Shown here: piece after piece, positions 1 to 48,649 of the stretch
Position numbering within the stretch: the first letter of the stretch is position 1
Layout of the letters: the number at the start of each line of letters is the position of its first letter
Source of the DNA: Patella caerulea
Taxonomy: Eukaryota
Assembly (NCBI GenBank): GCA_036850965.1
Contig: JAZGQO010000002.1
Coordinates: 26,996,901 to 27,060,900, forward strand
Direction: 5' to 3'
Length of the DNA stretch: 64,000 nt
Translations under genes and position numbers: made by a program
Notes under the pieces: model-generated
The model's input: only the letters and a program-made list of their open reading frames with translations
Database searches by the model: none
What the model was told of the DNA's origin: nothing

Positions 1-1150
1 ATTAAAAAGTGTGGGGCTTAACACGCAGCCCTGTTTTACACCAATACCAGTACTTATTTGTTTAGAAAGTCCATTGCTGGTTTGAACTATATATGAAATA
101 TCACTATACATTGAGTTCATTATGTTAAAGATATTTCCATTTATGTCAAGTTTAAGTAATTTAAGAAAAGAGTCCCTTTCTCTAAATGGTATCAAAAGCT
201 TTGGTAAAATCTATGAAACTGATAAAAACATTTTGATTTTTACTTTTATATTTATTTAGGATTGTTTTGAGAATGTATATATTGTCCGTAGTTCGGTGAC
301 TTTTACGAAAGCCACCCTGGGCAGGATCTAACATATAATCTATAATTCTATTATTAATAATGGAGAAGAAGCATTTAGAAAGACAACTAGCCAGAGCAAT
401 CACTCGGTAATTCCCAGGGTCTTCTGTTGGGCCTTTTTTCAGTATTGGTACTATGTATGACTGATTCCAGCTTGAAGGTATTACTCCGGAAGCGAGGATT
501 AAATTAAAAAATTTCAAATACTGATCTATTAGAATTTCTGAGGAAGCTTTTAGCATTTCATTTAGAGTTAAGTCAGGGCCATTTTATTTTCCAGGTTTTA
601 ACTTTTTGAATGCATTTCTGACTTCTAAGGCTGAAATTTCTTTGTTTAGTTCAAGGTTTATATTAGTTGATATTTGTATATTGTGTATTGAATTATCTAT
701 TTCCTGGGAGTCACAATCGTTTATATTATTATTTTAGAATAATTTAGAAAAATGCTGATGCCAGTTTTCAATAAGAATGTCACTTTCTGTTTTAGATTTA
801 TTGTTGTTATCATCTAATAAAGAATTTACCAGGTTCCAATAAATTTTGGGGTCACATGTCTCTAACTCATTAAGCTTCTTAATAATTGAATTTTTAGCTT
901 CACAGCTTTTATATTTAGTTACCTTTTTATAAATTTTCTTTCGGCTATAGTAAATTTCTCTTAAGTAATTATTCTGAGGGTTGTTATTGTAATTAAGTTG
1001 AGCCTCTAACATGTCCCTTCGTAGTCTGTTACAGTCTTTGTCAAACCATTTATGTTTTTTAGTTGGTTTTTGATTCTGACAAACCTGGCACAGATATGAC
1101 CAGAAATAATTGATGTGCCAGGGGAAACAACTCTGTAATTTTGTCATGAA
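1..1150 (-). mobile_element. Non-LTR (LINE) retrotransposon fragment with reverse-transcriptase domain, 5'-truncated, extending past the window start
   Basis: Minus-strand ORFs 734-1147 and 182-556. The second carries RT motifs (PILKKG...NYRVIALASCL, FRKSHRTTDNI, FIDFTKAFDTI) typical of LINE reverse transcriptase domains. The RT continues in other frames below 182, so the copy is decayed. Confidence 0.75.
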
Positions 1151-3544: not shown

Positions 3545-3815
3545 GTTGTTCTTGGTGTTTAACGTCCGCTTCCACCGAAGGTGATATCGCAGACAAGGCT
3601 TATTTTTGATTTTCATTATCTTAGCGCACGCGCAGGGGCCTTTGCTGTGGGAGGAAACCGGAGTGCCCGGGGGAAACCCACGAGGTTGAGAAGGAGCCCC
3701 TATCTCCATGCCACATACGCTCACACCAGGGCTCGAAACTACAGCCGCAAGCCAGAGGTGACCGGCCAGCTAGAGGTCGAAGTGCGGCACTCTAGACCAC
3801 TAGGCCATCTACAAA
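3545..3815 (-). mobile_element. tRNA-derived SINE copy (family 1)
   Basis: Reverse complement of the SINE seen in full at 48306-48605. It has the tRNA-like head (gcctagtggtctagagtgccgcacttcgacctctagctggccggtcacc), a conserved core (gtttcctcccacagcaaag) and a ggtttaacgtcc tail. Confidence 0.7.
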
Positions 3816-5482: not shown

Positions 5483-5572
5483 ATGGCGGAAAAAAGTGAA
5501 AAAAAGGTTCTGGTTGTACATTCAGCCACAGATCTACAAAGGTTGAAGTTGGAAAAATTAATGAAAAATCCA
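5483..5572 (+). CDS. PRKRIP1: PRKRIP1-like exon 1 (MAEKSEKKVLVVHSATDLQRLKLEKLMKNP)
   Basis: ATG at 5483, then a GTAAGT donor at 5573. The peptide matches the conserved N-terminal block of PRKR-interacting protein 1 (..QKLKLERLMKNP..). Confidence 0.7.
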
Positions 5573-6412
5573 GTAAGTAGTAGCGTATGAACAAGTCGTT
5601 GGGCTTAATTTACAAAATAGGCTATTCTTTGAATGTATTCAAAACGACCGAATTTAACGTCTATTTTATGCCGAGTCGGATATTTTCTTGGTTCTTCGGG
5701 TTTAGAATAACTCCACGAACGTCAAAAGGCCTACAGTTTAAAGCGGGAATTTCATATTTTCCAAGAAAGTCAAAACATATTTTTTTCTATGCCTTTTGCT
5801 CAATAGGTTGTCAACTCGGTATTATCATGGACCTTATTATAAGGTCCATGGTATTATTCAATCATGTAGGATAGGCATTATTTTCCACACTCAAATATCT
5901 TTCACATAGGACCTATTGCCTTAGGAAAAAATACCATAATTACCTACCTTGTTTTCCCATTCCCCCGCTGCAATAAGTGCAATAGCTATCTTCAAATGTT
6001 TGTATTTAAAGTTGAAATTGATAGTTTTGCCAATTTCTCAACTGGCAATAGTGAATTATGGGATCATTCTTTAACTAAGTTTAATAACAAGGTAGTACGG
6101 TTTAATTATAGATAATAGCCTATCTATTTTAAGGCGCTTATTTTATAAATATATTTTAAAATATGAAATTGCCGCTTTGAATAATATAAACTGTATTCTT
6201 TTTACTATATAATACTAGCGTGTATTTCAAAAACTTAATAGTAATACACAAGGATTTTGAAAAAGGAAGGATATCTCCTGAAAAGAAAGTTGCAGACCAA
6301 TGATTTTAACCGCAGCTCATGCTTCCAACAAAATTTGAAAAAGATCTGTTAAAAATTATATAGCCTCAAAAGCATTGACAATGTTTATAAACAGGGTCAT
6401 AATTCTTAAGGG

Positions 6413-6690
6413 GTTGGGCGAATGGTTAGCATGTGCCATGTGCGTGCTGTATCATAAATCCTGTCTTTTAGTCAACTAAGCTGGCATAGTTTTGAATCCC
6501 TGGTTGTACGTGACAAGGAGAAAGGTCGCCTGTCTAACCTTGTGTGTTTTCTCCGGGTCCTCTGGTTTCCTCCTACTGCTAAAGACCCCTACCTGCAAGC
6601 AAAATATTGAAAGAAAATTAAACCATATATTAGACCCGAAATAACCTGGTTTGTTTTGAGTTGACGTTAAACCCCATTCCTTTCTCTCTC
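6413..6690 (+). mobile_element. tRNA-derived SINE copy (family 1) in PRKRIP1 intron 1
   Basis: tRNA-like head, a ggtcgcctgtc...ggtttcctcctactgctaaagacccctacctgcaagc core and a gacgttaaacccc tail with a (CT)n run. Confidence 0.65.
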
Positions 6691-6886
6691 TCTCATAATT
6701 CTCAAGCAGAAAGTTGGGAAACGCTGATTATCAATTAGGCTCATCCTTTTCAAGAATTAAAGGTCTGTCAAAAAAATGTAGCCGCTATTGCATTCATAAA
6801 CCAGTTGCAGATGGACAGACAGGGTGACCACTAATATGTGGATTATGGGCTTAATGAGCTTATTGTTTTTATTCATTATTTTTCAG

Positions 6887-6965
6887 AATAAAGAGGTGTT
6901 CATTCCTGATAAACCAAAAGATTCATCAGCTAAGAAAACACCAGAATTTATCAGAAATGTCTGGG
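6887..6965 (+). CDS. PRKRIP1: PRKRIP1-like exon 2 (NKEVFIPDKPKDSSAKKTPEFIRNVWG)
   Basis: tttttcag acceptor and gtaagt donor. PEFIRNVWG corresponds to human PEFVRDVMG. Confidence 0.7.
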
Positions 6966-7166
6966 GTAAGTTTAATTTTTACAATCTAATTTCCAAAATA
7001 TTTCTTCCCTACATCAAATATAGCCATGCCAAAACCTTGTATTTCGGGCACCAAAACCCTGCATCTGCTGCAGTTCAGCAATGTGATATAGACAGATATT
7101 CCATCTTAACCTAAATGTAAAACAAGATTAATGACAACTATGTAATATAATATGGTTGGATTTTAG

Positions 7167-7267
7167 GATCAAGTGCTGGAGCAGGAAGTGGTGATTTCCA
7201 TGTGTATAGAGGAGTTAGAAGAAGAGAATATGCAAGGCAAAAATTTAATGCAGAAAAAGCTAAAAGG
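7167..7267 (+). CDS. PRKRIP1: PRKRIP1-like exon 3 ([33 protein letters not shown])
   Basis: ttttag acceptor. The peptide is near-identical to the PRKRIP1 core [24 protein letters not shown]. Phase is consistent with exon 2. Confidence 0.8.
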
Positions 7268-8377
7268 GTTTGTATTAAGGGCGTTGAGCAGTCTAAGATT
7301 CGCACTAACTTTTCAACGCCAATCTTATTAAGTCTTTGCAAACTTGTTCCACTTATAAAATAACTCAGAAAACTCTCGAAAGTCGCGTCGTTTTATGTGT
7401 AACAATGGAGATACGAGGCGGAGGAATAAAACTATTTATAGCAAACGAGACTGATTCCCCGACCTAGATAAGGTGTTGAATAAATTATGACGTCGTGCAC
7501 GCCAGTCACGTGATCAACACAGACGTGGCTTCAACGGGAGTGGAAGATGTCACGTGACCAGAAGGAATTCCCTGTATGACGCTATTATCCAGGTCTATTT
7601 ATCTATCACGAAAGGAACATGACGGATTTTTTTTTTATGGTCAAAGATTACTATTTTTTGAATGCATAACATGATTTAGAGTGCGGTGGAGTAGTGCAGT
7701 GAAGTAATTATTTACTTTTACATCCGAATTGTTGTATTTTAATACTTGTTGTCGACGTATTCAAAGAATTAACCCAAAATCGCAAAATCTCGTTTGAAGG
7801 TAAATAATGAACAACAATTTTAAAATACTTTGAGTTGGTATTTTTTAACGTTTTTGGTGTCAAAATGTAGCTTATAACCTCCACTTTCGATCTACTGGTG
7901 GGATTATCAATAAATCTTTTGAGCTTGTACTAATAGAATTTCCAAGAAAACGCATCGTTTTTTTGCGTTTCCATGGATACAAGACAAACCACAACCTATA
8001 GCCAAAAATTGACCAGTGTATTTTTGGGACTTGCTATTAGCATTGTTCATGCGAAATTTGATGAAAATATCTGCAGGCATAACTGAGAAAATTCTACTTT
8101 TGTTGTCATCAGTACCCCTTTTTATCATGCTTTTGGGCCAAGTTTGGAACATAGTTGGTAAATAAAATTGGTATTTATTTGGTGATTAATATGTAGTTTA
8201 TCACCCCAAATAACAAAAAATGTCATATCTTATCAACAAAAATTACAGTGCTAGCTTTAAAATTTGCATTTTAGACTACTCAACGCCCTTAAAATTGGTT
8301 CAATGGCATTTTGGATATACACAATCAAATGTGGTTTGATAAACAAAACATCACTCATTGTAAGACAGACGTAGTAA

Positions 8378-10314
8378 TTTTTATACGCCCACATTGAAAT
8401 GTGGTCGTATGTTGTCATCCCGTCCGTCGGTCTGACATCCACAAATGCTTGTGGACGCTCTAGAGTCCAAAGTTAATATCTGATTGACTTTAAATTTATA
8501 TGCAACGTTTAAGGTCACGACAAGAAGACGCTTATTGATTTTCAGTGATTTCTGATAATTACTGCCAGAGTTATGGCCCTTGAACACTTCAAAAAATCTT
8601 TTGGACACTCTAGAGACCAAAGTTAATATCAAATTGACTTTGAATTTATACACAGTGTTTAAGGTCATAAGACAAAGAAGCCTGTTGATTTTCAGCGATT
8701 TCCTATAATTACTGCTAGAGTTATGTTGCCAGAGTCGTATGTTGTTATCCCGTCCGTCGGTGTGACATCTAGGGCTTGGTATCGATAGTGATTTTTACTA
8801 TCGATGATCGGCAGTGAAATGTCGGTCGATAATCGATAATATCGAAAACAAACTTATTTTCACGGTCGTCATCAAGACCGGAAACAGTGTAAGTTCAAAG
8901 TTCAAAACCATACGAAGTTGCGAAAGATCGTTTGCTCCTGTCTAAAACCCAAAGTCGGCAAAGTGTTTCCACACAGCACTTTTAGCTTTACCGGGAAAAT
9001 CAACAAGCGTTTTGTCGTCCATGTGTGCTATTTATTGTACCGGGTACTCTATTACTGAGGCACACGTACAGAAATAGTGAACTGTAGCATGGACCTTATA
9101 ATGTGTTATAAGGTCCATGCTACAGTTCACTATTTCTATTATAACACATTATAAGGTCCATGACTGTAGTAGACGAATTCTGAAGCTTTCAAAGGGATAT
9201 AACTCTAACTTTATTTACACATCCGGGTATCTCCGATTTAGCGATAGTCAACAATAATTTCTTCAAAACTAAAGTAATGTTTCAGTGAGAGTGAATTTAT
9301 GAAAACGGCTGTTCAAAAAATATAAGCAGTCACAATTTTGTTATGTGTTACATTGATGCTTGATCATTGATAGTAATTAAAGTGAGCGGTGTATTATGAT
9401 TAACTGAAAGAAAACATTGACATTTCAGACGCAAGAAAAATAGACGAAGAGCGATAATCGATAGTAACCCAACGCTATCGATAGTGCTTATCTGGGCAGT
9501 CCAATCGATACTATCGATTTATATCGATATTTTACCCAGCCCTAGTGACATCCACAAATGCTCTAGAGGCCAAAGTTAATATCTGATTGACTTTAAATTT
9601 ATATACAGCATTTAAGGTCACTTAAAGAAGACACTTATTTATTTTCAGTGATTGCCGATAATTACTACCAGAATTATGGCCCTTGAACTCTTCAAAAAAT
9701 CTTTTGGACACTCTAGAGACCAAAGATAATATCAAATTGACTTTGAATTTATACACAGTGTTTAAGGTCATAAGGCAAAGAATCCTATTGATTTTCAGCG
9801 ATTTCCTATAATTAATGCCAGAGTTATGGGCCTTGATCACTTTGAATAATCTTGTGGATGGTCTAGAGGCCAAAGTTGAATTGATACACCATGTTTAAGG
9901 TCATAAAACAAAGAAGCCTATTGATTTTCTGATAATTACTGCCAAAAATATCTCCCTTGATGCTCTAGAGGCCAAAATTATCATCCGATTGACTTCAGAT
10001 TGATACACCGTGTTTAAGGTCTTGAGACGAACAAGTATATTGATTTTCAATGAATTTTGATAACTGAACAGCTAAATCCATGATATTAAATGTTCTCTAT
10101 ACTCAACGTTAGCATGGGGAAGAGCTTTATAAAAACCCATCAAATTCTATCGATTTTCTGATAATTACTTAATGAGTTGTTACTCTTAATCAGATTTAAG
10201 TGTATTATAAATGTTTCATTACCGAAAAGTAAAAATATGCGAAAACTCTTTGTTGACTGCCCGGACGATTTAGCTGTTGTGGATCTCTGTTTTGTTGCCT
10301 GGCAACCTATCTTT
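8378..10314 (+). mobile_element. Satellite-bearing non-autonomous element, copy A, interrupted by a nested MITE at 8759-9544
   Basis: The 5' end tttttatacgcccacattgaaatgtggtcgtat...gtccgtcgg is followed by tandem monomers of about 166 bp. A degenerate tail then ends ...gttgcctggcaacctatcttt. The same architecture appears at 17280, 59732 and, inverted, at 29838. Confidence 0.75.
8759..9544. mobile_element. hAT-like MITE nested in satellite array (TIR TAGGGCTKGGTA..., 8-bp TSD GTGACATC)
   Basis: The termini tagggcttggtatcgata... and ...tatcgatattttacccagcccta are inverted. GTGACATC is duplicated at 8751-8758 and 9545-9552. There is an internal perfect palindrome at 9075-9170. Confidence 0.6.
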
Positions 10315-10435
10315 ATTTCTGTGAAAGACTCGGAGGCAAATTTTGCCTTATCATAGATGCTTCCAACTATTCCTTGATTTCAAACAATCAAAAAGTTCTT
10401 TTAAGGCACGCCAATGTGAACACGGGTGGTATTCG

Positions 10436-10575
10436 TTTTTATACGCCCACATTGAAATGTGGTCGTATATTGTCGTCGTCGTCCCTGTCCGTCCGTACCT
10501 GCTTGTGGATGCTCAAAGGGCCAAACTTTAAATTTATACATAGTATTTAAGGTCATGAGACGGAGAAGCCTATTG
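10436..10575 (+). mobile_element. Orphan 5' end plus about one monomer of the satellite-bearing element (copy B)
   Basis: tttttatacgcccacattgaaatgtggtcgtatattgtcgtcgtcgtccctgtccgtccg followed by a single monomer-like unit. It abuts the foldback repeat. Confidence 0.6.
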
Positions 10576-10764
10576 GTCCACAACCATGATATACAATTTT
10601 TTAACAGTATTCGCATACAAACTGCGGGCATTTTGTATGGCAATTTTGGTTGATTTTCCCGAAATTCGAACTCAACCTTCCTTGGTGTAATGGTAATATA
10701 ATCAAATGTTTTTTTAAATCGGATAATAATTTTGACCTCCAGAGGGTCCACAAGCTAAAAAGTT

Positions 10765-12245
10765 AGGCTGGCACTGCCAGGCAGGATACGCCCACATTTT
10801 TGAGAGATGGATAAAGAAAAAGCAATACCGAAAGTGATTTTTCCTACATCATTAAGTCCTGTATTTCATACTGTATTGGGAGCAGCCATTTTGCTGGTCA
10901 GTTCCAGTCTGATATTCATGAAATTCGAAGCCGACAATGATTATGGTGTGAAGGTACACAACCTAGAAATGTGACTTTTCGTCAAAATCGGATAAGAATT
11001 GTGACCTGTAGAGAGTCCACAACCATGATATACCATATTTTTACACTATTCGCGTACAAACGGCAGCCATTTTGTATGGCAATTTTGGTACTATAATCAG
11101 AGGGTTTTTTTAAAATCAGATAATAATTGTTCGAGAGATAGACAGAGAACAAGCAATACCGAAAGTGATTTTTCCTACCATCAAAGGCCATAAAGTTACA
11201 ATATGATATGCGCAAATATCGAAAAGAATAAAGATCTTTAGGTTATAAACAAGCATTTCGGGTTTCATCAAAATCGAATTAAAATTGTGACCTTTACAGG
11301 GTCCACAACTTTGATATACCATATTTTCATACTGTTCGCCTACAAACGGCGGCCATTTTTTCTTGAAATTCATGGTTATAACTCAAAGATCTTGGTTCCT
11401 TTCGATATTTGCGCTTATCGGATCATAACTTCCTGAATTATGGCCCCTGATTATACGCAAAATCGCCTTATTTTAGCTTGTGGTCCCTCTGGTGGTCACA
11501 ATTATTATCCGATTTGAAAAAACGTTTGACTCTATCACCGTTACACCCTACGGAAGGTTGAGTTCGAATTTCGAGAAAATCGGACCATAATTGCCAGAAA
11601 AAATGGCCGCCGTTTGTACGCGAACAGTGTAAAAATATGGTATGTCAAAGTTGTGGACCCATTAGAGGTGACAATTTTAATTCGATTTTGATGAAACCTG
11701 AAATGCTTGTTTATAACCTAAAGATCTTTATTCTTTTCGATATTTGTGCATATCAAATTGTAACTTAATGAATTATGGCCTTTGATTGTAGGAAAAATCA
11801 CTTTCGGTATTGCTTGTTCTCTGTCTCTCTCTCGAACAATTATTATCTGATTTAAAAAAAAACTCTGATTATATTACTGTTGCACCATAAGGAAGGTTGA
11901 GTTCGAATTTCGTGAAAATCGTACCAAAATTGCCGGAAGAAATGGTCACCTTCTGTACGTGAATAGTGTAAAAATATGGTATATCATGGTTGTGGACTCT
12001 CTACAGGTCACAATTCTTATCCGATTTTGACGAAAAGTAACATTTCTAGGTTGTGTACTGTTACATCATAATCATTGTCGGCTTCGAATTTCATGAATAT
12101 CAGACTGGAACTGACCAACAAAATGGCTGCTCCCAATACAGTATGAAATACAGGACTTAATGATGTAGGAAAAATCACTTTTGGTATTGCTTGTTCTCTA
12201 TCCATCTCTCAAAAATGTGGGCGTATCCTGCCTGGCAGTGCCAGC
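10765..12245. mobile_element. Long foldback / inverted-repeat element of about 1.5 kb with roughly 290-bp internal subrepeats
   Basis: 10765-11400 is the reverse complement of about 11560-12245. The outer ends are aggctggcactgccaggcaggatacgcccacattttt and aaaaatgtgggcgtatcctgcctggcagtgccagcct. The mirrored six-frame ORFs are artefacts of this symmetry. Confidence 0.7.
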
Positions 12246-12339
12246 CTATCTTTCATACATGTATAATGAATTGGGGCCAATATCTATCTATTTCTGGCAT
12301 TATGGATTAGTATAATAAGAAAACAAGCCAACATAATTT

Positions 12340-12610
12340 AGAATTAAAGTTATTGTGTCCCAAAGCATCAACCAATCAAATTGCTTATCTCTGCTTACCC
12401 TACGGCAGAAAATGCTCATCTTCGAACTCCATCAAGGTATCGCCCTAATAAACACCTACACCAAGTTTGAACATTCTAGGTCAATTAGTCGGAGAGTTAT
12501 TGTGTCCCAAAGAGTGTGATGGACAGACGGAACGAAAAGACAGACGGGCGGACAAACGAACCTATTTTAATAGTCCCCCACTTTCTTCGAAATGCAGGGG
12601 ACAATAATGT
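12340..12610 (-). mobile_element. Partial copy of the TIR/tandem-repeat element seen in full at 39220-40140
   Basis: It shares ...gggacacaataactctcc...ttgaacattctag...ccccactttcttcgaaa with 39220-39420, in reverse orientation. Confidence 0.55.
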
Positions 12611-12675
12611 TGACACTATGGTTGAGTTTCTTAAATAAGACTAATATTAAGGTAAAATGTATTTTGTATCAACAG

Positions 12676-12761
12676 GAAGAATTAGATGCTGAATTTTCAG
12701 AAAAAGTGAAGAAGAACCAAACTGAAGCAGAGAAAAAAGCTGCTAAAAAACGTGCTAAAAG
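12676..12761 (+). CDS. PRKRIP1: PRKRIP1-like exon 4 (EELDAEFSEKVKKNQTEAEKKAAKKRAKR)
   Basis: caacag acceptor and gtaata donor. It matches the human [27 protein letters not shown] segment. Confidence 0.7.
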
Positions 12762-14946: not shown

Positions 14947-14998
14947 GTAGATGTCATTTTGTTTTATAACTGAAATTTTTTTAACGGACAATATTGGG

Positions 14999-16112
14999 GC
15001 CAGTCATTATCACATATGTGATAGAAATGATTAAACACTTTCCAAATACAATATTAACACAGAGATCATCGCTACCATAGAGGAGTCATAAAGGATTCAT
15101 GAATCGGAAGTGACGAACGCCAAAGGAAAACACGAATTATCTCTCTATGTGAATGACTGAAGTGATGAGTGATGACAGATAAACGGCGGAATTTCTGCTC
15201 ACTAATAATCCCTTCGAAGACAAAAAGTTATATGGGACCGCAAGAGGTTATCTGACGATACAATAAAGTAATTAAGTGTCATAAGATACGAGAACACAGG
15301 AAAAATAGAAATACTCCGTACAGCCCCTTGTTTTTATTCATTCTATAGGGGAGACCGGGGCACATTGAACCACTTTGTTCACATACATTATGTTTGTCCT
15401 CATTTAATATCAAATGTTTTTATTAGATCTCTTTAGTTCATGATCAAAATTTTAAAAAAAAATCAATATGCCCCCTTATATGGAACGAACCCCGGTTTAT
15501 CTGGATTGTATAGATTAGACATATATGAACTTAAGTACAAGAATTTCCGAGGCTAAGATGGAAGATTTTTCTCTTTTAAGCGCTTTTTTGTAAAATTCAC
15601 CTGCCTAAGAAAATAATTGACAGCATGTGGCTTATTGATGGAGAAATGGGACTAAGAAGTTATCTCACTTCTGTACAGTGTTGGGTTGTATAGTATTATT
15701 TATAAAGGATTAGTTGGGTACAAGACCTAAAATCCGTGACCAATTTGCGGGGAAGTTATTTTGAAGGTGGTTTCTATATGACAAAAACCTGCTGAAGCGA
15801 TTAAGCTTGGGTGCCTCTCTCTAAAATGCTGGCGGAAGCCGCTAGAGGGCCAGATTCAAAATGGTGGTCAGATGTGGCGGGAAAATATAAAATTGTGTAA
15901 TATAGGCTTCTGATGTGTCTATTCGTATGTTTTAAGGGTCTCTGAATCGAAATATTTTAATCAAAAATCAATCCAGCCACTTGTTTTGCCAATATGGCCG
16001 AAAAATCCAACATAGCCATGGATTTTGATTTTGATTTAATCAACGCTTTATAATGGACCCATGTAATATATAATCACGCATGATAATCAACATCACCAAC
16101 TTACCCAGTTAG
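14999..16112 (+). repeat. Arm 1 of a roughly 1.1-kb inverted duplication
   Basis: Reverse-complement identity to 19248-20135, for example gccagtcattatcacatatgtgatag and taatggacccatgtaatatataatcacgcatg. Confidence 0.75.
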
Positions 16113-17279: not shown

Positions 17280-18881
17280 ATTTTTATACGCCCACATTGA
17301 AATGTGGTCGTACATGTATATTGTCGTCGCCCCCGTCCGTCCGTCTTGTGGACGCTCTACAGGCTAAAGTTAATATCCGATTGACATTAAATTTATACAC
17401 AGTGTTTAAGTTCATGAGACGAAGAAGCCTATTGTTTTTCAGCGATTTCCGATAATAACTACCAGAGTTATGGCCCTTGATCACTTCAAAAAATCTTGTG
17501 GACGCTCTAGAGGCCAAAGTTAATATCCGATTGGCTTTAGATTTATACACAGTGTTTAAGGTCATGAGACGAAGAAGCCTATTGATTTTCAGCGATTTCC
17601 GATAATTACTGCCAGAGTTATGGCCCTTGATCTCTTTAAAAAATCTTGTGGACGCTCTAAAGGTCAAAGTTAATATCCGATTGACTTTAAATTTATACAC
17701 AGTGTTTAAGGTCATAAGACGAAGAAGCCTATTGATTTTCAGCGATTTCCGATAATAACTACCAGAGTTATGGCCCTTGATCACTTCAAAAAATCTTGTG
17801 GACGCTCTAGAGGCCAAAGTTAATATCCGATTGACTTTAAATTTATACACAGTGGATGCTCTAGAGGTCAATTTTAAAGTTAATATCCGATTGACTTCAA
17901 ATTTACATAGTGTTTACAGTCATGAGACTAAGTCGTCTATCGATTTTCAGTGATTTTCAATAATTTATACACAGCGTTTAAGATCATAAGACAATGACGC
18001 CTATTGATTTTCGGCAATTTCCGATAATTGGTGCCAGAGTTATGGCCCTTGATCTGTTTAAAAAATCATGTGGACGCTCTGAAGGTCAAAGTTAATATCC
18101 GATTGACTTTAAATTTATACACAGTGTTTAAGGTCATAAGACGAAGAAGCCTATTGACTTTCAGCGATTTCCGATAGTTAGTGCCAGAGTTATGGCCCTT
18201 GATCACTTCAAAAAATCTTGTGGACGCTCTAGAGGCCAAAGTTAATGTCCGATTGACTTCAAATTTATACAGAGTGTTTAAGGTCATAAGACAAAGACGC
18301 CTTTTGATTTTCAGCGATTTCCGATAATTAGTGCCAGAGTTATGGCCCTTGATCACCTCAAAAAATCTTGTGGACGCTCTGTAGGCTAAAGTTAATATCC
18401 GATTGACTTTAGATTTATACACAGTGTTTAAGGCCATGAGACGAAGAAGCCTATTGATTTTCAGCGATTTCAAATAATTACTGCCAGAGTTATCTCCCTT
18501 GATAACTTCAAAAATTCTTGTGACGCTATAGAGGCCAAAGTTACCATCCGATTGACTTCAGATTGATACATAAAGTTTAAGGTGTTGAACGAACAAGTAT
18601 TTTGATTTTCAATGAATTTAGATAACTGAACAGCTAAATCCATGATATTAAATGTTTCATGTATATACTAATTGTTAGCGTGGGGTAAAACTTTATAAAA
18701 AGCAATCAAATTCTAATGATTTTTTGATAATTACATAATGAATTGTTATTCATAATCAGTTTTTAGTGTATTACAAATGTTTCATTACCGAAAAAAGTAA
18801 AAATATGCGACAACCCTTGTTGACTGCCAGGACGATTTAGCTGCTGTGGGCGTATGTTTCGTTGCCTGGCAACCTATCTTT
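17280..18881 (+). mobile_element. Satellite-bearing non-autonomous element, copy C, full length with about 8-9 monomers of roughly 166 bp
   Basis: 5' end tttttatacgcccacattgaaatgtggtcgtacatgtatattgtcgtcgcccccgtccgtccg, then the monomer array, then a 3' tail ending ggacgatttagctgctgtgggcgtatgtttcgttgcctggcaacctatcttt. Confidence 0.8.
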
Positions 18882-19247: not shown

Positions 19248-20135
19248 ACTTTGACTGGATAAGTTGGTGATGTTGATTACCATGCGTGATTATATATTAC
19301 ATGGGTCCATTATTAAGCGTTGATTATAAATTAAATTAAAAATCCGTTGACTACAGAGTATATCAGATGATAAATATCGGTGAGTGTTATTGCTGGTTGC
19401 CATCTATCTACACAAATTCATCAAAATTGAAGACATTGACCCCGAGACTATTTTCCAGGCCACAAATGGTGGCCATCTTGGATTTTTTGGCCATATTGGC
19501 AAAACTAGTGGCTGGATTGATTTTTGATTACAATATTTAGATTCAGAGACCCTTAAAACATACGAATAGACACATCAGAAGCCTATATTACACAATTTTA
19601 TATTTACCAGCCACATCTGACCACCATTTTGAATTTGGCCCTCTAGCGGCTTCCGCCAGCATTTTTGAGAGAGGCACCCAAGCTTAATCGCTTCAGCAGG
19701 TTTTTATGATATAGAAACCACCTTCAAAACAACTTTCCCGCAAATTGGTCACGGATTTTAGGTCTCGTACCCAACTAGATATATCCACGGTGGTTCAATG
19801 TGCCCGGTCTCCCCTACCTTATAAAAACATGGTAATGCACAGACTTTTAATCTGATTTTCTTTCCCGTTCTCTTATCTAATGGCAGTCAATTCTTTTTAT
19901 GAATTGTAAGATATTCTCTCACAGTGTCACACAACAACTTCGAGGGAATTATTAGTAAGCAGATATTCGCCCATGTATCTGTTATCACTAGTCACTTCAG
20001 TTAGTTATATAGAGGAATAACTCGTGTTTTCCTTTGGCGTTCGTCACTTCCGATTCATGAATCCTTTATTCCTGTGTTAATATTATATTTGGAAAGTGTT
20101 TAATCAGTTCTATCACATATGTGATAATGACTGGC
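19248..20135 (-). repeat. Arm 2 of the roughly 1.1-kb inverted duplication; carries an indel of about 150 bp relative to arm 1
   Basis: It mirrors 14999-16112. The two arms flank a 3.1-kb spacer containing satellite element copy C. Confidence 0.75.
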
Positions 20136-21409
20136 ACCAATACTTTAAATAAGACTTTTTGTTGAATGGTAAAAACATCAACATCTTAGACTTTCGTTTG
20201 TAATCTAGTCTCTTATGGTCAGCGCTTTTTTCGTTATCAAGCACCTGTTTTTATGGAATAATCTACCATTTAGTGTAAGATGTTTTACATCTCTATATTC
20301 TTTTAAAGTTGGTTTCCCGCATACAAACTGGGTGATTTGATGATATATTAGGACTAAAATTATATACAAACTAATTAATTTATCATAATTTTGCTTCAAA
20401 TCCTTCTCAAAACACTGTAATTGCCAAGTATATCCCGCTATGAAAATCGATCAAAAGAGGCCATGTTTGCGTCAGGTGATTACCCTTCACCCTCCCTATG
20501 GCAACCGCAGGCGGAGACGGGTGAGAATTCATTGCATACACAAGACGTTGTCTGTAATCGCTGACTGTTATTACAAATATCGATTCCTAATTCAATTCTC
20601 GGATTATGCACTGCCTGCGTCTTTTTCCGTGATATTTATCTCAGAAAGTGTTGTAGGTCTAAATCTTTATAGAGTTTATCAACATGTGCTCGTGCAGCCT
20701 TCGGTGTCATGCGTGGGTATAGCCCCTAATCGTCGAGCTGTCGATTAAGGGAACCCTTACATTTTTTCATGTGTATATGCTCAATGAGTGTTTTTCAGAG
20801 AATCCAATATTTTTCTAGTAAGATTGGATATCTCTACTTTCTATATATACCAAAATTGCCATACTTTTATAGGCAATAACCACCCGATAAATACTTTGCT
20901 GGGAACCCATCTTTAAAAAACAACTTAAAAACATTTAATCAGGCTTTTAACTGACTCTGTATACAATCAATAAACTAAAAACATACTTATGTATGTATAC
21001 AATCGTTGACATGTCCATAATCTTGTTGTTTATTTATGATTACATTGTCACTTTATGAAGTGCCCCTGAACATGTTATATGAAGTATGCTGTAATAATAA
21101 TCATCATGTAAGGGGTGGGTTCTTGTGAATATTTGCTAAAATTGACATACGGTACTATTTAAAATCCAACATTTTGTAGGGAATCTGGTAATGTATGTGT
21201 GTTTAATTATGCCATACATTATATAGCCGATTACCTTGTCTTAAAGTTTCAGCTTAATGTATTAAGCCGTTTGGAAAATCATCGCCTAAATTGCTTAACA
21301 GGGTTATGTGTCATACTTACGGAATTTTAACTTATTGTTTACGTGTAACCTATCCTGATAAGTCTGACAAAGTAAAGCAAACTTATAGATATTGTTGTCC
21401 AGACCCTAG

Positions 21410-21633
21410 TTGTCAATATTCAGAGAGTGGCAAAGGTTAAAGATAAACATTATATTTTATTAGAAGAGGAATCAGAAGAAGAATCTGAAGATGAAGATGA
21501 TGAAGAAGAGAATAAACAAGATGCTATAAATGATTCCAATGATGTGAAAGATGGTGATTCAAATATTAATAAAAGTAAAGACAATTCTAGTGACTCAGAT
21601 GATGACAGTGATCCTAAAAAAGTAAAATCTTGA
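21410..21633 (+). CDS. PRKRIP1: PRKRIP1-like terminal exon with acidic Ser/Asp/Glu-rich tail, stop at 21631-21633
   Basis: This is the only frame compatible with the phase-1 end of exon 5. Two in-frame acceptors are possible (21389 or 21410). The acidic C-terminus is analogous to the human SSSAEASGTEEEEE tail. Confidence 0.5.
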
Positions 21634-23649: not shown

Positions 23650-23845
23650 GCGTATGTGGCATGGAGAGAGGGACGCCTTCTCAACCTTGTGGGTTTCCTC
23701 CGGGCACTCTGGTTTCCTCCCACTGCTAAAGACCCCTACACGCAAGCGAATTATTGAAATAAAATTAAAAACCATATGTTAGTCCCGAAATGACCTAGTT
23801 TGTGTTGAGTGGCCGTTAAACCCCATTTCTCTCTCTATCTCTCTG
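23650..23845 (+). mobile_element. 5'-truncated SINE family 1 copy
   Basis: It lacks the tRNA-like head but retains the core (ggtttcctcccactgctaaagacccctacacgcaagcgaattattgaaataaaattaaa) and the ...gttaaaccccatttctctctct tail. Confidence 0.65.
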
Positions 23846-27188: not shown

Positions 27189-27334
27189 ATGTCTGTTCCT
27201 CAGAGACGACAGGGTGGAGAGGATTCTCTATATAGAATCCCACCCTACTATTATATACATGTATTAGATCAGAATACAAATGTTACCAGGTTAACTATTG
27301 GACCACAGACTTATATCAGACAAGACAATGAAAG
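27189..27334 (+). CDS. MVP: MVP exon 1 ([49 protein letters not shown])
   Basis: Near-identical to the vertebrate MVP N-terminus [35 protein letters not shown]. gt donor at 27335. Confidence 0.9.
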
Positions 27335-27684
27335 GTTTGCGAATTTTTTTTCAAACAACCAATTAAACATTCTACTTCAGTATGAAAGTTAAACATAATT
27401 TTATAGATGTATCCTCCATTTACTTAAATCTCTTTGACCTAAATAATGTATTCGTTAGAATAATGTAGTCACTCACTAGTATACACATTCAAAACTTATG
27501 ATTATCGAAGGTATGACATTTCTAATAAACAGGAAAAATAAAATTATAGCTGGAATACAAGCTGTTTAGTGAAAGTTAATGTTTCCAAAAGATGAACAAA
27601 TTTATAGATAATAGTTTGTGATACAAATTTCAATATTATTTTTGCCATTTTATTCTGAGATAATTTTAATTGTCTTATTTATAG

Positions 27685-27880
27685 AATTGTATATGGACCT
27701 GAGAAAATGTTGGTGGTACCACCCAGACATTATTGTGTAATAGAGAACCCTGTTGTTAGAAATGTTGATAATGAAGTAGTCACAGATAAAGCTGGACAAA
27801 TCAAACTCTATCATGCTGATCAAGAAATACGTCTAGCTCAAGAACCCTTTCCATTATACCCTGGTGAAGTCTTAAAACAG
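27685..27880 (+). CDS. MVP: MVP exon 2 (IVYGPEKMLVVPPRHYCVIENPVVRN...PFPLYPGEVLKQ)
   Basis: Matches human MVTVPPRHYCTVANPV...DPFPLYPGEVLEKD. atag acceptor and gtaaat donor. Confidence 0.9.
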
Positions 27881-29097
27881 GTAAATATTTGATATTTTCA
27901 AATGGAAAATGGTTGATGAAATAAAAATTAGGTTGAATTAGAATTTTCTATCACTTTCAGAAGAAATTGAAAACTTACACAAGATTGGGCAGTTCAGATA
28001 ATTGACAGATTTAATTGTAATGTTATTATGATATTGAAATGCAGAGTTTATAATAGGTCCATGGTTTAGCTCAAGGCAAAAAGGTTATTGAAGCATGTTG
28101 TACGCAGTTTTTACACTGTAGTATAATGACTCATGGTTTGTTGAAATAGTCTACTAGAAAGTTATAGATAAAGAAAGTCTACATAATGTATATGTTCTTT
28201 ACAATAGATTGTTTGTTATTGTATATATAGTGTTACGTCACATATAACAAGGCCAGAAATAACCTATTCATGAAATACACCAGCAGAAATGATAAAACGT
28301 CAATGTACAATTAAAAACAGGATTTATTACAATCTACTGAAAACAACAATTACAAACATGGTAATACAAAGAAATCATACAAAAACATAATATGTAACAG
28401 ACTAGTAATGGACATTAAATATTAGACAGTATTATTAATCATATTTTAGATAATCAGTTCACAACGCAAATGTTCCTCAAGCACACATTCCGACATCACG
28501 TGGATCGAACTATTCTGGAATCTACGATGATACTTGAATCTTCCACTCTTTCTCTAACACGAATTACTCACCACAACCACGGAACGAACACGTCTCGAGC
28601 CACTCACGATGATTTGAACACATTACCGAACAATCACATGGTACACAATAATGAAAGAACTTATATAACAACTATGAAATGAAAGAAATCACACCCGACA
28701 CATCCGAACAAATCTCGCCATGCCGCCGGTTGCTATACCTCTGCCGAAACATCATCATCACGTGGGTAACAGCGCGTGCTCGTCTTGATTAACAAGTCTC
28801 TAAATTCTGCAAGAATGCTAACAGACGGATTACGACACAACTTTAGTACAACAATTAACTGATTAGTCATTATAATCGTAAAGAAAATAATTAGAAACAC
28901 ATAACAATACCATGTACTACATGACAATAGTTTATGTATCATGCAAATGAATATTGATACATCAGTCATTGATACCTTTACAAACAGATTAATTTTATAT
29001 TTATAATATAGATTGTGCTATATCAATAATTGATTATAATTTTCAAAGATCATTTGTTCAATTTCGTATGTCAAATGTATGATTTTATCTATTTTAG

Positions 29098-29221
29098 CCT
29101 GTAACCCCACTGAAAATAGTGCCAGCCAATGCTGCATTGAGATTAAGAGCTATTTTAGATTTTGAAGATGATGCAGGAGAAAAGAGGATAGCTGGTGACG
29201 AATGGTTGTTTGAAGGGCCAG
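29098..29221 (+). CDS. MVP: MVP exon 3 ([41 protein letters not shown])
   Basis: Matches human [41 protein letters not shown]. Confidence 0.9.
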
Positions 29222-29261
29222 GTATTTAAACAGTTTTTAACTTGATATGACGTGGATAAGG

Positions 29262-29838
29262 GAGAGAAGTCAATCGGATATTAACTTAAGCCTCTAGAGC
29301 GTTCACAAGATTTTTCAAAATGATCAAGGGTCATAACTCTGGTAGTAATTATCAGATATCGCTGAAAATCAGTAGGCTTCTCCGTATCATGACCTTAAAC
29401 ACTGTATAAATTTAAAGTCAATCGGAATCAACATTAGCCTCTAGAGCATTCACAAGATTTGTCAAAGTGATCAAAGGTCATAACTCTGGCAGTAATTATC
29501 AGATATTGCTGAAAATCAATATGCTTCTCTGTATCATGACATTAAACACTGTGTATATATAAATTTAAAGTCAAACAGATATTAACTTTAGCCTCTAGAG
29601 CGTTCACAAGATTTTTCAAAGTGATCAAGGGTCATAACTCTGGTAGTAAAATAATTATCGGATATGGCTGAAAATCAATAGGCTTCTTCATCACATGACC
29701 TTAAACACCGTATATAAATTTAAAGTCAATCGATATCAACTTTAGCCTTTAGAGCGTTCACAAGAAATTTTGGACGACGGACGGACAGAAAGGGCGACGA
29801 CAATATAGGACCACATTTCCATGTGGGCGTATAAAAAT
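29262..29838 (-). mobile_element. Satellite-bearing element, copy D (5' end plus about 3.5 monomers, 3'-truncated) inside MVP intron 3, antisense to MVP
   Basis: It ends ...ggacgacggacggacagaaagggcgacgacaatataggaccacatttccatgtgggcgtataaaaatga, which is the reverse complement of the family 5' end. It starts 41 bp after the MVP exon 3 donor. Confidence 0.75.
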
Positions 29839-30611
29839 GATTATACATGATAGGGTACATCATGAGCTAGTGATTATACTGTGTACAAATTAGCTCTATA
29901 GATTTATTCATTCAATCTCCAAATTAATTTACACTTACAGATGTTATTTGTTCAATCTTTGATGTTTTGTTTAATCTTTGATTGTTTAATCTTTGATCAT
30001 ATTCCTGAAGCAATGGCGCAAGAAATCCCTCTCTTACCATTGCTGGATAGAAGTCATATTCTTGAAATTGGGCGGGGCGTGTCTCTTTTTAACGTCCAAT
30101 CAAATCCCTCCTCTCTTCTCGCATTTGGCATAATTTTCAAAACGGCCGACGAAGAAAACATGTTGGCACACGATAATCAAGCATAATAAATTTCGCGGGT
30201 TATGACGTAAACAAGTCGCGATTGTCACTAGATACATTGCGGTCACATATTTTGAGGTCTGGTTAACCCCGATATTGTTTGTTACAATGTAGGTCATTGG
30301 TTGGTAATGGCACTACTGACCAATAATAATTTAGTACAACAATGTTCACTCAAGATAGCAGTGTGAAGTGGATTAGTTCTAATCAAACGAAACACTGTGC
30401 AGGAGTATGATCTTTGATTCACTAATTTTCACATGATAAATAACAAGATATTTATTTATTGTCTTCAGACTGCACATCATATACACACATGGCTATACAA
30501 TGACCAATAGATTATAGGTATTAATTAACTACATATTTTATACGATGATCAATAAATTATTGATACTAATTAACTATAAAATTTACCTGGTAAATTTATG
30601 TATTATTGTAG

Positions 30612-30841
30612 GTACATATATTCCACGAAAGGAAGTAGTTGTTGAAGAGACTATCCGTGCTACTGTTATTAAACCTAATCAAGCTATAAGACTGAGAGCT
30701 CGTAAAGAATGTATTGATAGAGAATTAACCAAACAGCGAGTTACAGGTGAAGAATGGGTTGTAAAAAAGACAGGAGCATATTTACCTGGTGCTTATGAAG
30801 AAGTTGTTGATGTTGTCAATGCTTATGTATTAACAGAAAAG
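30612..30841 (+). CDS. MVP: MVP exon 4 ([76 protein letters not shown])
   Basis: Matches human [33 protein letters not shown]...[32 protein letters not shown]. Confidence 0.9.
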
Positions 30842-31143
30842 GTAAACCTCACAAGAATAAGCCTATGTTCTCTTTGTTTAAAAGTATTCGTGGTTTGACT
30901 AGCAGAATTGTCTAAAGAGTAGTGTGTATTGTAATATATTTAATATTTTAATATTATGATGGGTCTACCAGTGGAGAGTTTCTTTGTGCTTCAGTTTCTG
31001 GTCAATCTAAAACAATACTTGCATATTTAATGTCTTTCAGTGTGAAGAAAAGCCTACTCATATTTCAATATCATTTATATACAATAACACACAAAGTAAT
31101 ACATTGTCAAAATTCTATTATTATTTTGTTTGTCTATTTGCAG

Positions 31144-31269
31144 AAAGCCTTACACATGAGAGCCATAAGAACATATGTTGATGATTTTAAAATTACTAGA
31201 AAGAATGGAGAAGAATGGTTGATTACAATGAGAGATACTGAAACACATATTCCTAATGTTTATGAAGAG
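31144..31269 (+). CDS. MVP: MVP exon 5 (KALHMRAIRTYVDDFKITRKNGEEWLITMRDTETHIPNVYEEV)
   Basis: Matches human [43 protein letters not shown]. Confidence 0.9.
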
Positions 31270-31645
31270 GTAAGAAAATTACTAAATACAAATAAACTTT
31301 GAATGTACTTCACTATTGTTACAAATATTATTGGATATATGGTGTCTTAATGAGAGTAATTAGCCACTTATTCTAGTTTAATTTCTGTCTCTTTAAGAGT
31401 TACACTCCTTGATACTCTCACAAAATATTATTATCCCTGTAGCAGATAAAGGAAAGAAAATCTGTGTTAAACCATGTGGTCATACCCCCCTACCCCAAAA
31501 TTGTGAGTGTGTATTTGCTTGTGTTGAAAAAATTTCATTGAAATTCCTGATAGAAAGATAAACAAAGAATCATTGTATGTGCCAAGCTCTAGATTGAACC
31601 GTGAATACATGATAATATAGATAATGCTTTATTATTTGTTTTCAG

Positions 31646-31756
31646 GTTGTAGGAGTAGTTAATATTACCACATTAAATAATCGCCAATATTGTGTAGTAC
31701 TTGATCCTACAGATGATGATGGCAAACCACAACTTGGTAAACGTAAGCTTATCAAG
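31646..31756 (+). CDS. MVP: MVP exon 6 ([37 protein letters not shown])
   Basis: Matches human [36 protein letters not shown]. Confidence 0.9.
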
Positions 31757-32025
31757 GTAAATACTTATATTTAAAACTAAGGTGATTATTTTAATGCTGG
31801 GTCAGTCTGAAAAGTTTGAATAATTTCCAATGATTGGTTATAGTTTCTTGCTGAACTGTGACCTTTGTTTGCTTTAATAAGGTACGTATGTAGCGTTATG
31901 GATGTATACGGTCCCAGATTGTGTTAATGGTTTGCACCATGGTGCATTCATTGGACAACATCAAACTAATTTTTGTATTTTTCAAAGATTCTACCAGTAT
32001 TCATTGAGCTTCATTTATATTACAG

Positions 32026-32151
32026 GGTGAAAAAACTTTCTTTTTAATGCCTGGCGAAAGCTTAGAAAAGGGAATTCAAAATGTTTATATTCTTGGTGAA
32101 GATGAAGGTTTAATTTTACGTGCAACAGAATCATTTAGAGAAGGAAGTGAT
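32026..32151 (+). CDS. MVP: MVP exon 7 ([42 protein letters not shown])
   Basis: Matches human [42 protein letters not shown]. Confidence 0.9.
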
Positions 32152-33758
32152 GTAAGTATAAATATTATATTTGTAATTCAGTATGGCCAAATTCTATAAG
32201 CAGCCAATCGCCCACAGATGATCTACTCAAAAATGACCTTTATTTACGTAAATCTTGAACAAAAAAATAATTTGGATAGTTATGTTTCCTTTTTAAATTA
32301 TATGAATTTTATAAATATTATAAATAAAATTCTAGCCGCAAGAATAGCTGATCCTCTGTCTTAGTTTGGCTGATGTAGATTGTTGTCATACTCTGTGTTG
32401 GTAATGGATATCAGGTAGCATTTATTAAAACTAGTAAAGCTTTCTTAAAATAAAAATAGAGTTTGAAAAAGATTGAAAACAGATAACTGGTAGGAAAAAG
32501 AAGTTGAATTAGTGCTAAAAATAGATCAGTTGTGAGTTATAAAATGAAATAAGATCTAAATTATCAAATTTTAAGATTTTACTTATTTCACCACCAAAAC
32601 AATTCACTTCAAGAGAAAAGACTATAAATTTTTTTTAAGAAAGCTTTACTTGTCTTGGTTAATACTGATTGATTTATTCATACACAACATAGAATTGCAG
32701 ACAGAGAGTTATGCTTTAAATAAACGTAAGTAATGAGTGATTATGAAAACAATCTCCTTGTATTTAAAGGAGGTACCGCAAATAAAAAGACGTAAACGTG
32801 AAGAAGCAGTACCAGAGGTAGCCGCAGCACGCCAGGTAAATTACCAGATTGATGTGCTACATAATGATGCTGTATGATTACCTGTTTTTTATTTTCTCCT
32901 GAAATGTTGAACTGTATCCGCATGGGAATTTAATTATAGCACCATCTTTCATTTTCTTTAATTTTGTAAAATATTAAATGCTCTCAATATAAACTCTTGT
33001 TTTATCTTGAGAGCATTCTTCTAATTATGAAAACGTTAATGTAATCCGACTTTACATACCTCGTGGAGACTAGCAGGATAGTAATTATATCGCACTTTGA
33101 ACAGAGTTCATTCACCCAGTCATTTACATTTTTGTTTACTTGGTTATACTTTTAATTAGTTCCTTTGTATGGTGTAAAAAACGTTATTGATCGTACATTT
33201 ATCCTGACTTAGCCTATAGTCTTGAAGATTTATAAAATTGTGCAGGAGCCATAAAAGGTCCTGCCAATTTCAAAAATGAGAAAAAAGCTCTTGTAGAAAA
33301 ACTCTTCTTAATCATATTGCAAGAGTAATGCTACATTTTTATTCTTAAGTCTTGTTTAATGTTTGGTGAATATGGTAGTAACAGTATAATCAACATGGAA
33401 ACTGATGCCTCAAATGTATGCAGTTTTAAAATAAACAAAAACTGAAAGTAGTTTATTAATATCAATATTTAGTAGAGCGATTTTGATAATTTGCAGGTGT
33501 CTTTAATGACTCCCTCGAAGGAGAGCCGAGGTGTGCCGAGAAGAGCAGAAGCGAAAGCTCACCTTAAACGTGAAGGACTGCCTAACAATTGTGTGACAAT
33601 GCTTATTGGTAGAAAAAAATATATTGGTATTTTTTGTGAATAGCTTGTGAGTGTAAAGACATCACTGAATAAACACAGTTAATTACCACCACCAGGTTTT
33701 TGTATATATTTTAATGCTAGACAACCTATGTATATAGAAAATGTAATTGTTATTTCAG

Positions 33759-33908
33759 TCTCTTGAGAGAAAACCTGGAGACAGATGGATGATCCGTGGA
33801 CCTAAAGAATATGTACCCCCAGTTGAAGTTGAAGTTATTATGAAACGACAGGCTATACCTCTCGATGAAAATGAGGGTATCTATGTCAGAGATGTTAAAA
33901 CTGGAAAG
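33759..33908 (+). CDS. MVP: MVP exon 8 ([51 protein letters not shown])
   Basis: Matches human [45 protein letters not shown]. Confidence 0.9.
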
Positions 33909-34051
33909 GTAACTGTCGATATTATAAACATATGAAGAGAAATAATTCTACTCTTACCTGATATATTAAAATTCAAATGATCAGAGACCTGAAATAGCTC
34001 TAATTGGATCACACAAAATTTCTCTTTATCTTTGGTTATTATTTTTACTAG

Positions 34052-34290
34052 GTTCGTTCTATAACTGGTGTAACGTACATGTTAAGTCAAGATGAAGAAT
34101 TATGGGAAAAACAGCTTCCACCTGTAGTAGAGAATCTATTGGCTCAAGGAAAAGATCCTCTAGCTGACAGAAGTGATAGAAGTGCACGGGATTCACTTCA
34201 AAAGAGTAGAGATAAGACACGAGTTGTAACTTTCCGTGTCCCACATAACGCCGCTGTTCAGATATACGATTACAAAGAAAAGAAAGCTAG
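34052..34290 (+). CDS. MVP: MVP exon 9 ([23 protein letters not shown]...[23 protein letters not shown])
   Basis: Matches human [34 protein letters not shown]...[23 protein letters not shown]. Confidence 0.9.
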
Positions 34291-34638: not shown

Positions 34639-34836
34639 AGTTATTTTTGGACCAGAATTAGTCATGTTAGGACCTGATGAACAGTTTACCCAATTAAGTT
34701 TATCTGGTGGTAAACCCAAGAAACCCAATGTTATTAAATCTCTGTGTTTATTGCTGGGACCAGATTTCTGTACTGATATTATCACAGTAGAAACTGCTGA
34801 TCATGCCAGACTACAGTTACAGCTGTCCTATAACTG
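34639..34836 (+). CDS. MVP: MVP exon 10 ([66 protein letters not shown])
   Basis: Matches human [61 protein letters not shown]. Confidence 0.9.
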
Positions 34837-48605: not shown

Positions 48606-48649
48606 ATGTATTTTAGACACAAATTGTTTAATAACATATGTTAAATTAC

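Follow-up and report, generated by a model that had tools for sequence, protein, structure and literature searches.

A foldback bounded by two HINE 3' ends in an intron of the limpet Patella caerulea, and how it may have arisen

What kind of element is a 1.5-kb foldback whose two ends carry the same motif as neighbouring, seemingly different transposons? The question is raised by positions 10759-12253 of a 64,000-nucleotide stretch of Patella caerulea DNA (contig JAZGQO010000002.1, positions 26,996,901 to 27,060,900; the window), where a long inverted repeat lies close to satellite-bearing elements. An earlier note on this DNA, made from the sequence alone, had seen either a hotspot of nested insertions or a hint that the foldback and the satellite elements share an end-recognition sequence. 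The shared motif, CGCCCACAT, is a subterminal inverted repeat (subTIR), the normal end signal of the family of non-autonomous Helentrons known as HINEs. Both ends of the foldback are HINE 3' ends, and on balance we think it probable that the foldback is a rearranged HINE, in which a single snap-back tied to transposition joined two inverted, 5'-truncated tail halves of one element.

The satellite-bearing elements supply the reference for these ends. HINEs have subTIRs, a complementary repeat by the 5' subTIR, central repeats and a 3' palindrome, and they insert into TT-rich targets with T-runs at their boundaries and without target duplication (PMC4067079; PMC7492417; PMC3879986). A (GTCY)n microsatellite is a further published feature (PMC7492417). 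The satellite-bearing elements, which we call the A family, match this definition point by point and are therefore HINEs. Five copies share a 5' end of TTTTT-AT-ACGCCCACAT-tgaa-ATGTGGTCGTAT followed by (GTC/GTCC)n, and their flanks diverge just before the T-run. In all five the 5' subTIR ATACGCCCACAT and its partner ATGTGGTCGTAT, on either side of tgaa, are complementary at 11 of 12 positions. Every copy carries the microsatellite GTCGTCGTCGTCCCTGTCCGTCCGT and variants of the (GTCY)n type, and the 150-bp tandem repeats come in blocks of 1.9-4.2 copies with 79-93% matches. Complete copies end in GTGGGCGTAT-gtttc-GTTGCCtGGCAAC-CTATCTTT, which is to say a 3' subTIR, a palindrome and a T-ended terminus.

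Copies A, C, L004 and L005 have T-runs at both boundaries and no flanking direct repeat. At the level of sequence comparison, paralogs with unrelated flanks confirm the A-family termini: L005 is 95% identical to copy C and has the same 3' terminus in a different flank, and the paralog on the European Nucleotide Archive (ENA) contig L004 also begins with the 5' T-run, again in a different flank. The ends, TTTTTATACG... and ...CCTATCTTT, are not those of a canonical Helitron, which has 5' TC and 3' CTRR and inserts between A and T (PMC4067079). No open reading frame (ORF) for a Rep/helicase was found in the window, where only 5 ORFs reach at least 150 amino acids and none is Rep-like.

Set against this reference, both ends of the foldback are 3' modules, and the canonical terminus is exactly where each arm ends. 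Read inward, each end shows the tail CCTA(T/A)CTTT, then overlapping palindromes, then ATGTGGGCGTAT. The distance from subTIR to terminus is 27 nt, compared with 26 nt at A-family 3' ends, and the end sequence GTGGGCGTATccTGCCTGGCAgtgccagCCTATCTTT matches the A-family 3' end (GTGGGCGTAT..TGCCTGGCA..CCTATCTTT) in three blocks of 10, 9 and 9 nt. The window holds seven copies of ACGCCCACAT where none is expected, and the only copies within the foldback are those in its 3' modules, each 27 nt from an end. The suggestion of a shared end-recognition sequence was thus right in that the motif is the HINE subTIR, but the homology is to the 3' end and not to the 5' end with which the foldback had been compared. 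The similarity to the A-family 5' end is confined to 13 contiguous bases, as follows from the definition of a subTIR as an inverted copy of the other end. A 5' module (T-run, subTIR 2-4 nt from the end, hairpin partner, microsatellite) was found on neither side of the foldback. We rejected the idea of a separate transposon class with ends of its own.

The inverted repeat itself is genuine and far above chance (blastn of 10759-11376 against 12253-11584: 672 columns, 86% identity including gaps, E=0), and a repeat search of the region returned the outer inverted pair as 341 nt at 93%. It is not the near-perfect repeat first described, since global alignment of 10761-11366 with 11593-12253 matched 568 of 605 ungapped columns (93.9%), with four indels (gap runs of 2, 47, 1 and 7 nt) and an asymmetric 226-bp centre. 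The arms have diverged by about 6% since formation; their Kimura two-parameter distance is 0.064, from 19 transitions and 18 transversions, and the outermost ~50 nt, TAGGCTGGCACTGCCAGGCAGGATACGCCCACATTTTTGAGAGATGGATA, are the same in both. The 47 nt that the left arm lacks occur in related monomers (10652-10683 against 11889-11920, 97%), so this gap is a true deletion in that arm. Together with the substitutions it argues for a real, old structure.

Subunits of roughly 290 bp had been proposed, but the repeats are dimers of ~335 bp, each made of two monomers of 165-174 bp. The dimers measure 335-339 bp in the right arm, where the monomer motifs are spaced 173/165/174, and 286-331 bp in the left, the arm with the 47-nt deletion. 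The centre is a further stretch of the plus-orientation array (11364-11696 against 11699-12035: 78%, blastn), and the whole structure can be written as the reverse complement of 11593-12253 followed by 11367-12253. Its central repeats are therefore not of a single orientation and switch at 11366-11377, within imperfect microhomology; the polarity from repeat to 3' module is normal within each arm. The outside flanks show no symmetry, and in the arm alignment neither arm runs past the canonical tail. The potential to form a hairpin was borne out, and confirmed by folding only: the predicted stem is ~600 bp, not ~700 bp, since the central 226 bp are asymmetric, with predicted energies of -661 kcal/mol as single-stranded DNA and -1037 kcal/mol as RNA.

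We refer to the element that supplied the arms as the F family. Direct reading shows that its monomer boxes TTGTGGAC...ATCCGATT and TTATGGCCC are also present in the A-family 150-bp satellite, and judged by sequence F is a family with end signals in common with A and with diverged central repeats. Module shuffling of this kind has been described for oyster HINEs (PMC7492417). When translated F segments were used in a protein search, the sole named protein match was P. caerulea KAK6181973.1, whose C-terminal 44 residues are a translated F terminus (42/44 identical to the right arm). It diverges from the window exactly at the tail, and so has a different flank. As the terminus recurs there with a new flank, sequence comparison identifies the F 3' end as a recurrent biological terminus. 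KAK6181973.1 (P0123), a hypothetical protein, ends in the translated HINE 3' terminus KDRLALPGRIRPHFREMDREQAIPKV..., and this C-terminus is likely to be a gene-model artefact caused by an F-family insertion. No second F-type sequence was found in the 64-kb window, though it has five A-family copies.

The flanks bear on whether the foldback arrived as one piece. The isolated 5' end of an A-family element (70-76% to the four other 5' ends, blastn) had been thought to abut the foldback, but a 183-bp monomer lies between them, 84% identical to the reverse complement of 11471-11662 and 82.5% to that of 11838-11997 (blastn). We read J1, the junction between this 5' end and the monomer, as a deletion junction. 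On the other side, the right flank has GTATAATnA..GGGGCCA at the offset expected for the rest of the broken monomer, with ~16/22 positions matching. It is suggestive that the two flanks are one interrupted monomer of another HINE and the foldback a single insertion in its T-run. The flanks, ...CAAGCTAA / AAGCTAAAA on the left and CATACATG on the right, share no direct repeat. In the 84-bp right flank we found neither a continuation of the array of the T family described below (p=0.46) nor a match to the A satellite (p=0.70).

The interrupted HINE appears to be a minus-strand element whose 5' part is the fragment at 12338-12607. This fragment had been called a reversed piece of a terminal inverted repeat (TIR) element at 39220-40140. 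The match was upheld, at 89% to 39483-39215, but the parent is not a TIR element. We rejected a TIR DNA transposon or miniature inverted-repeat element at 39220-40140, as its repeats are subterminal and asymmetric (GTCCCCCGCC is set in by 6 nt at the 5' end and by ~35 nt at the 3' end), it has a 3' palindrome and it is bounded by T-runs. It belongs to a further HINE family, T. With a foldback that appears to interrupt a HINE monomer, and with truncated HINEs as neighbours, a hotspot of nested insertions also fits the locus. The coordinates are collected in Table 1.

Table 1. Features of the foldback, its surroundings and the reference elements, in positions of the window
Feature	Position	Strand	Description
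Intron of PRKRIP1-like (DUF1168) gene	7268-12675	+	Holds A-family HINE 8378-10314, orphan 5' end, foldback and T fragment
Truncated A-family HINE, 5' part ('orphan')	10436-10575	+	T-run 10436-10440, subTIR ATACGCCCACAT, partner ATGTGGTCGTAT, (GTC/GTCC)n, ~0.65 monomer of 150 bp
Junction J1	10575/10576		Plus-strand A 5' fragment joined to minus-strand monomer without overlap
Left flank, 183 bp	10576-10758	-	~1.1 F-type monomers outside the left arm; ends in A/T-run GCTAA
Left arm	10759-11366	-	Inverted copy of 11593-12253; F-type monomers and 3' end module; 47-nt and 7-nt deletions
Left terminus, HINE 3' end	10759-10797	-	Tail CCTAACTTT; overlapping palindromes TGCCTGGCA / CTGGCAGTGCCAG; subTIR ATGTGGGCGTAT
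Strand-switch junction J2	11366-11377		End of symmetry in alignment; GAAATTCATGG imperfectly matches both partners, ~9-10 of 12-13
Asymmetric centre, 226 bp	11367-11592	+	F-type repeats extending the right arm inward
Right arm	11593-12253	+	F-type monomers (~338-bp dimer unit) in canonical polarity, then 3' end module
Right terminus, HINE 3' end	12215-12253	+	subTIR ATGTGGGCGTAT, palindromes, tail CCTATCTTT
Right flank, 84 bp	12254-12337	-	First ~30 nt resemble continuation of monomer broken at 10758
Truncated T-family HINE, 5' part	12338-12607	-	subTIR/hairpin GTCCCC..GGGGAC, (GTCY)n, ~1.2 monomers; 89% to 39483-39215 (blastn)
Reference complete A-family HINE, copy C	17281-18881	+	Defines 5' and 3' end modules
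Reference T-family HINE	39214-40173	+	T-run, subTIR GTCCCCCGCC, partner GGGGGAC, (GTCT)n, 146/294-bp repeats; 3' end with subTIR GGCGGGGGAC, palindrome AGCC..GGCT, T-run

How might such a structure have been made? Presumably a single Helentron Rep-helicase, acting in trans, recognises the end signals that A and F have in common: ATACGCCCACAT/ATGTGGGCGTAT, a short palindrome and the CCTATCTTT tail. A single F element would have been copied inward from its free 3' terminus, and the nascent strand would have switched once, snapping back across the microhomology and copying back to the same end. The event would have been linked to transposition, not to ordinary chromosome replication, and its product would have become fixed through one insertion into a T-run within a repeat monomer of another HINE. 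A snap-back is favoured because exact termini on both sides are hard to produce by local duplication, and because two separate insertions would need landing sites no more than ~14 nt apart. Having no 5' end module, the foldback is probably immobile now, and its effects are likely to be structural only, through a predicted hairpin of ~600 bp in the intron DNA and in PRKRIP1-like pre-mRNA.

Several points weigh against this picture. A single copy was examined, and both the one-event origin and the immobility rest on it. A snap-back linked to transposition is a conjecture, as the biochemical mechanism of Helentron transposition is not established. The literature we searched offers no precedent for double-3'-end HINEs or for foldback or head-to-head Helentrons or Helitrons, and a full-text literature search for the monomer and end k-mers returned nothing. 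The right-flank match, on which a single insertion partly depends, reaches p=0.008 against 20,000 random 45-mers of the window and p=0.018-0.024 by shuffles, but it is not significant against the whole region, and it is short and degraded and comes from a targeted test that was picked once the sequence had been looked at. Ten of the 37 arm mismatches are bunched in 30 nt beside the 47-nt deletion, which hints at later conversion or patching.

We weighed the snap-back origin against four alternatives. One is that the foldback represents a propagating family of foldback-type HINEs, in which two 3'-type ends are moved as a unit by the Helentron enzyme, the proposed basis being that the subTIR reads the same on either strand. 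The exact canonical termini agree with this, as do the identity of the outermost 50 nt despite the 6% difference between the arms, the presence of an F terminus at another Patella locus, and flanks that resemble a single monomer broken by an insertion in a T-run, the kind of site that HINEs favour (PMC7492417). On the other hand, the foldback has a 5' module on neither side, the 64 kb hold no second F-type sequence alongside five A-family copies, the Patella match shows the terminus only, and the papers searched describe no such family. A run of 50 identical bases at the termini of arms that differ by 6% would also arise by chance in about 4-5% of cases. We regard such a family as doubtful, and the fuller claim that the foldback belongs to a mobile double-tailed HINE family, in which a Helentron enzyme moves DNA with two 3'-type ends and no 5' end, as a little more doubtful again. 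If it were true, the line between rolling-circle and inverted-repeat or foldback transposons would blur, and Helentrons would have a route for seeding long hairpin loci in genes.

It is also doubtful that the foldback arose in situ, by an inverted duplication of a resident complete F element during host replication or repair (for example, a fork that switched template at the repeat array) and unrelated to transposition. The imperfect microhomology at the junction fits, such events typically leave a small asymmetric spacer, and the arrays abound in internal direct and inverted repeats, which favour template switching. However, the copy would have had to end at the exact terminus and replace the exact 5' portion as far as the insertion site, with none of the flank copied, a coincidence that we estimate at ~1 in 100 or less.

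That two sibling F elements inserted head to head, with later deletion of both 5' halves and the DNA between them, seems very unlikely. Helitron-type elements do cluster and land adjacent to each other (PMC4067079), the arms differ by 6% and by indels, and J1 (10575/6) shows that deletions fusing truncated HINEs occur at this locus. Nevertheless, the landing sites would have to lie within ~14 nt if the right flank continues the monomer broken at 10758, the window has no other F copy, and three events would be needed in place of one. Finally, an assembly artefact, either a palindromic chimeric read or a haplotype mis-join, is barely credible: although inverted duplications are a known class of artefact and patellid genomes are ~2% heterozygous (bioRxiv 10.1101/2023.12.18.572124), palindromes from chimeric reads are near-identical whereas these arms differ by 37 substitutions and by 47-nt and 7-nt indels, the centre is asymmetric and both ends fall at biological termini.

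We also tried to read 10436-12253 as one complete HINE with an inverted middle, and rejected it. Re-inverting 10576-11366 places a 3' module in mid-element, and removing that module leaves the monomers ~47 nt out of register.

Among known systems the closest are the HINEs themselves (Drosophila DINE-1, mite and mosquito HINEs, oyster Cg_HINE and bivalve pearl/CvA/DTC84). The A and T families fit the full definition, with T-rich ends, (GTCY)n, central repeats of 146-170 bp and no target duplication, and the foldback arms carry central repeats and a complete 3' module. HINEs as described have one 5' and one 3' module and a single repeat orientation (PMC3879986), whereas the foldback has a 3' module at each end, lacks a 5' module and carries repeats of both orientations. 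Helitron and Helentron clusters, arrays and end-bypass composites (PMC4067079) likewise contain adjacent or nested related elements with truncated members. The clusters reported there are head-to-tail or simple neighbours, and an inverted tail-to-tail dimer joined within its arrays is not described there. The published HINE descriptions that we came across are from bivalves, insects and mites, and in the papers searched we found none for gastropods.

The foldback also resembles Drosophila FB and D. virilis Tetris, in which long inverted arms made up of tandem sub-repeats enclose a short centre without symmetry. Elements of the FB type end in terminal sequences of their own and generate target-site duplications. 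The ends of the foldback, in contrast, are Helentron 3' ends, and its flanks have no direct repeat. Copy-back defective viral genomes are an example of the products of snap-back strand switching. Such products have the same geometry as the foldback, a short unique loop and two identical termini, and the analogy is one of geometry only. To our knowledge, no snap-back product has been shown for Helentrons. A second copy of the foldback architecture was not found in the window. Tetris has been cited as a source of satellite DNA (PMC7492417).

The gene that contains the foldback is PRKRIP1-like. Its exons at 7167-7267 and 12676-12761 splice in frame, tblastn matches are colinear, and Pfam PF06658 extends across the splice (E=2.6e-34). 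The exons on the plus strand are 5492-5605, 6863-6967, 7167-7267 and 12676-12761, and an acidic open frame at 21376-21630 might be a candidate C-terminal exon. If the gene is expressed, the predicted hairpin would be part of its pre-mRNA. An intron of the major vault protein gene was ruled out as the site of the foldback, tblastn placing that gene at 27219-36814 (+, ~15 exon matches). The vault gene has a HINE of its own, a 3'-truncated A-family copy at 29267-29837 (-) in the intron between exon matches 29101-29223 and 30611-30850. A protein search with a vault-protein exon returned no sequence of the same species, its best match being at 81%. Rfam and tRNA scans of the window for RNA genes were empty.

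The A-family copies show features of their own. In the element at 8378-10314 the 150-bp array is split by ~650 bp of other sequence (8793-9445), and its interior holds a 114-bp palindrome (9069-9182), 68 nt of it at 94% self-complementarity. A minus-strand frame stays open through the 150-bp satellite arrays for up to 195 amino acids (17284-17871, 18066-18473, 8381-8668, 9622-9873). Gene callers report this frame as protein, and two such ORFs appear in ENA metagenome assemblies (P0121, P0122), on contigs that carry paralogous A copies with the same start and stop bases and unrelated flanks. The open frame probably follows from a monomer that has no stop codon and a length divisible by three. 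At 5796-6200 of ENA contig L004 an A-family array is cut by a non-LTR retrotransposon with endonuclease, reverse transcriptase and RNase H genes, and here too a HINE array has been an insertion target. Pattern scans with the 3' and 5' modules found nothing in metagenome or viral contigs, and bacterial genome scans with a 19-base pattern gave three matches, about the chance expectation, of which L001 lies in GC-rich sequence and has no HINE-like context.

Other repeats are found elsewhere in the window. A second long inverted repeat, 14992-16109 / 19254-20142, has arms of ~1.1 kb with blocks at 75-95% and ends that begin TATTGGGGCCAGTCATTATCACATATGTGATAGAA, unrelated to the HINE motif. The complete A-family HINE at 17281-18881 lies in its loop. 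The repeat itself is probably a DNA transposon with long TIRs, or else a further foldback. Two direct copies, 42497-44020 and 49459-50963, are 95-99% identical, ~6.95 kb apart and contain ORFs of up to 218 amino acids; by eye, ORFs 42719-43375 and 50158-50724 (-) resemble Tc1/mariner-type transposase. Short interspersed repeats of ~130-170 bp, 62-95% identical and in both orientations (3641-3809, 44704-44872, 48950-49012, with further sites at 6521-6696, 23668-23845, 46632-46764 and 48436-48611), are possibly SINE-like (short interspersed nuclear elements). Neither ARAGORN nor Rfam found a tRNA-like part in them. PcH-sat of P. caerulea is derived from a Nin-SINE (PMC11121367). At the left edge of the window, the open frames of 1-1150 (-) look by eye as if they came from the reverse-transcriptase part of a broken retroelement.

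What changes is mainly the labels at this locus: 'satellite element', 'TIR element' and foldback alike are HINEs, and nothing special is needed to explain the shared motif. Most of the locus is ordinary transposon debris with one unusual twist, a HINE derivative that has two exact 3' ends and is seemingly one piece. It also flags a likely annotation error, in that the KAK6181973.1 model ends in a translated HINE terminus. For the biology of the limpet, satellite-carrying HINEs are now documented in a patellid, and the intronic hairpin predicted in the PRKRIP1-like gene, at ~600 bp, is a candidate for double-stranded RNA, with editing or small RNAs, and for structural polymorphism. For the family, a derivative with two exact 3' termini that seems to have been delivered as a single insertion narrows the ways in which Helentron DNA can be copied and joined.

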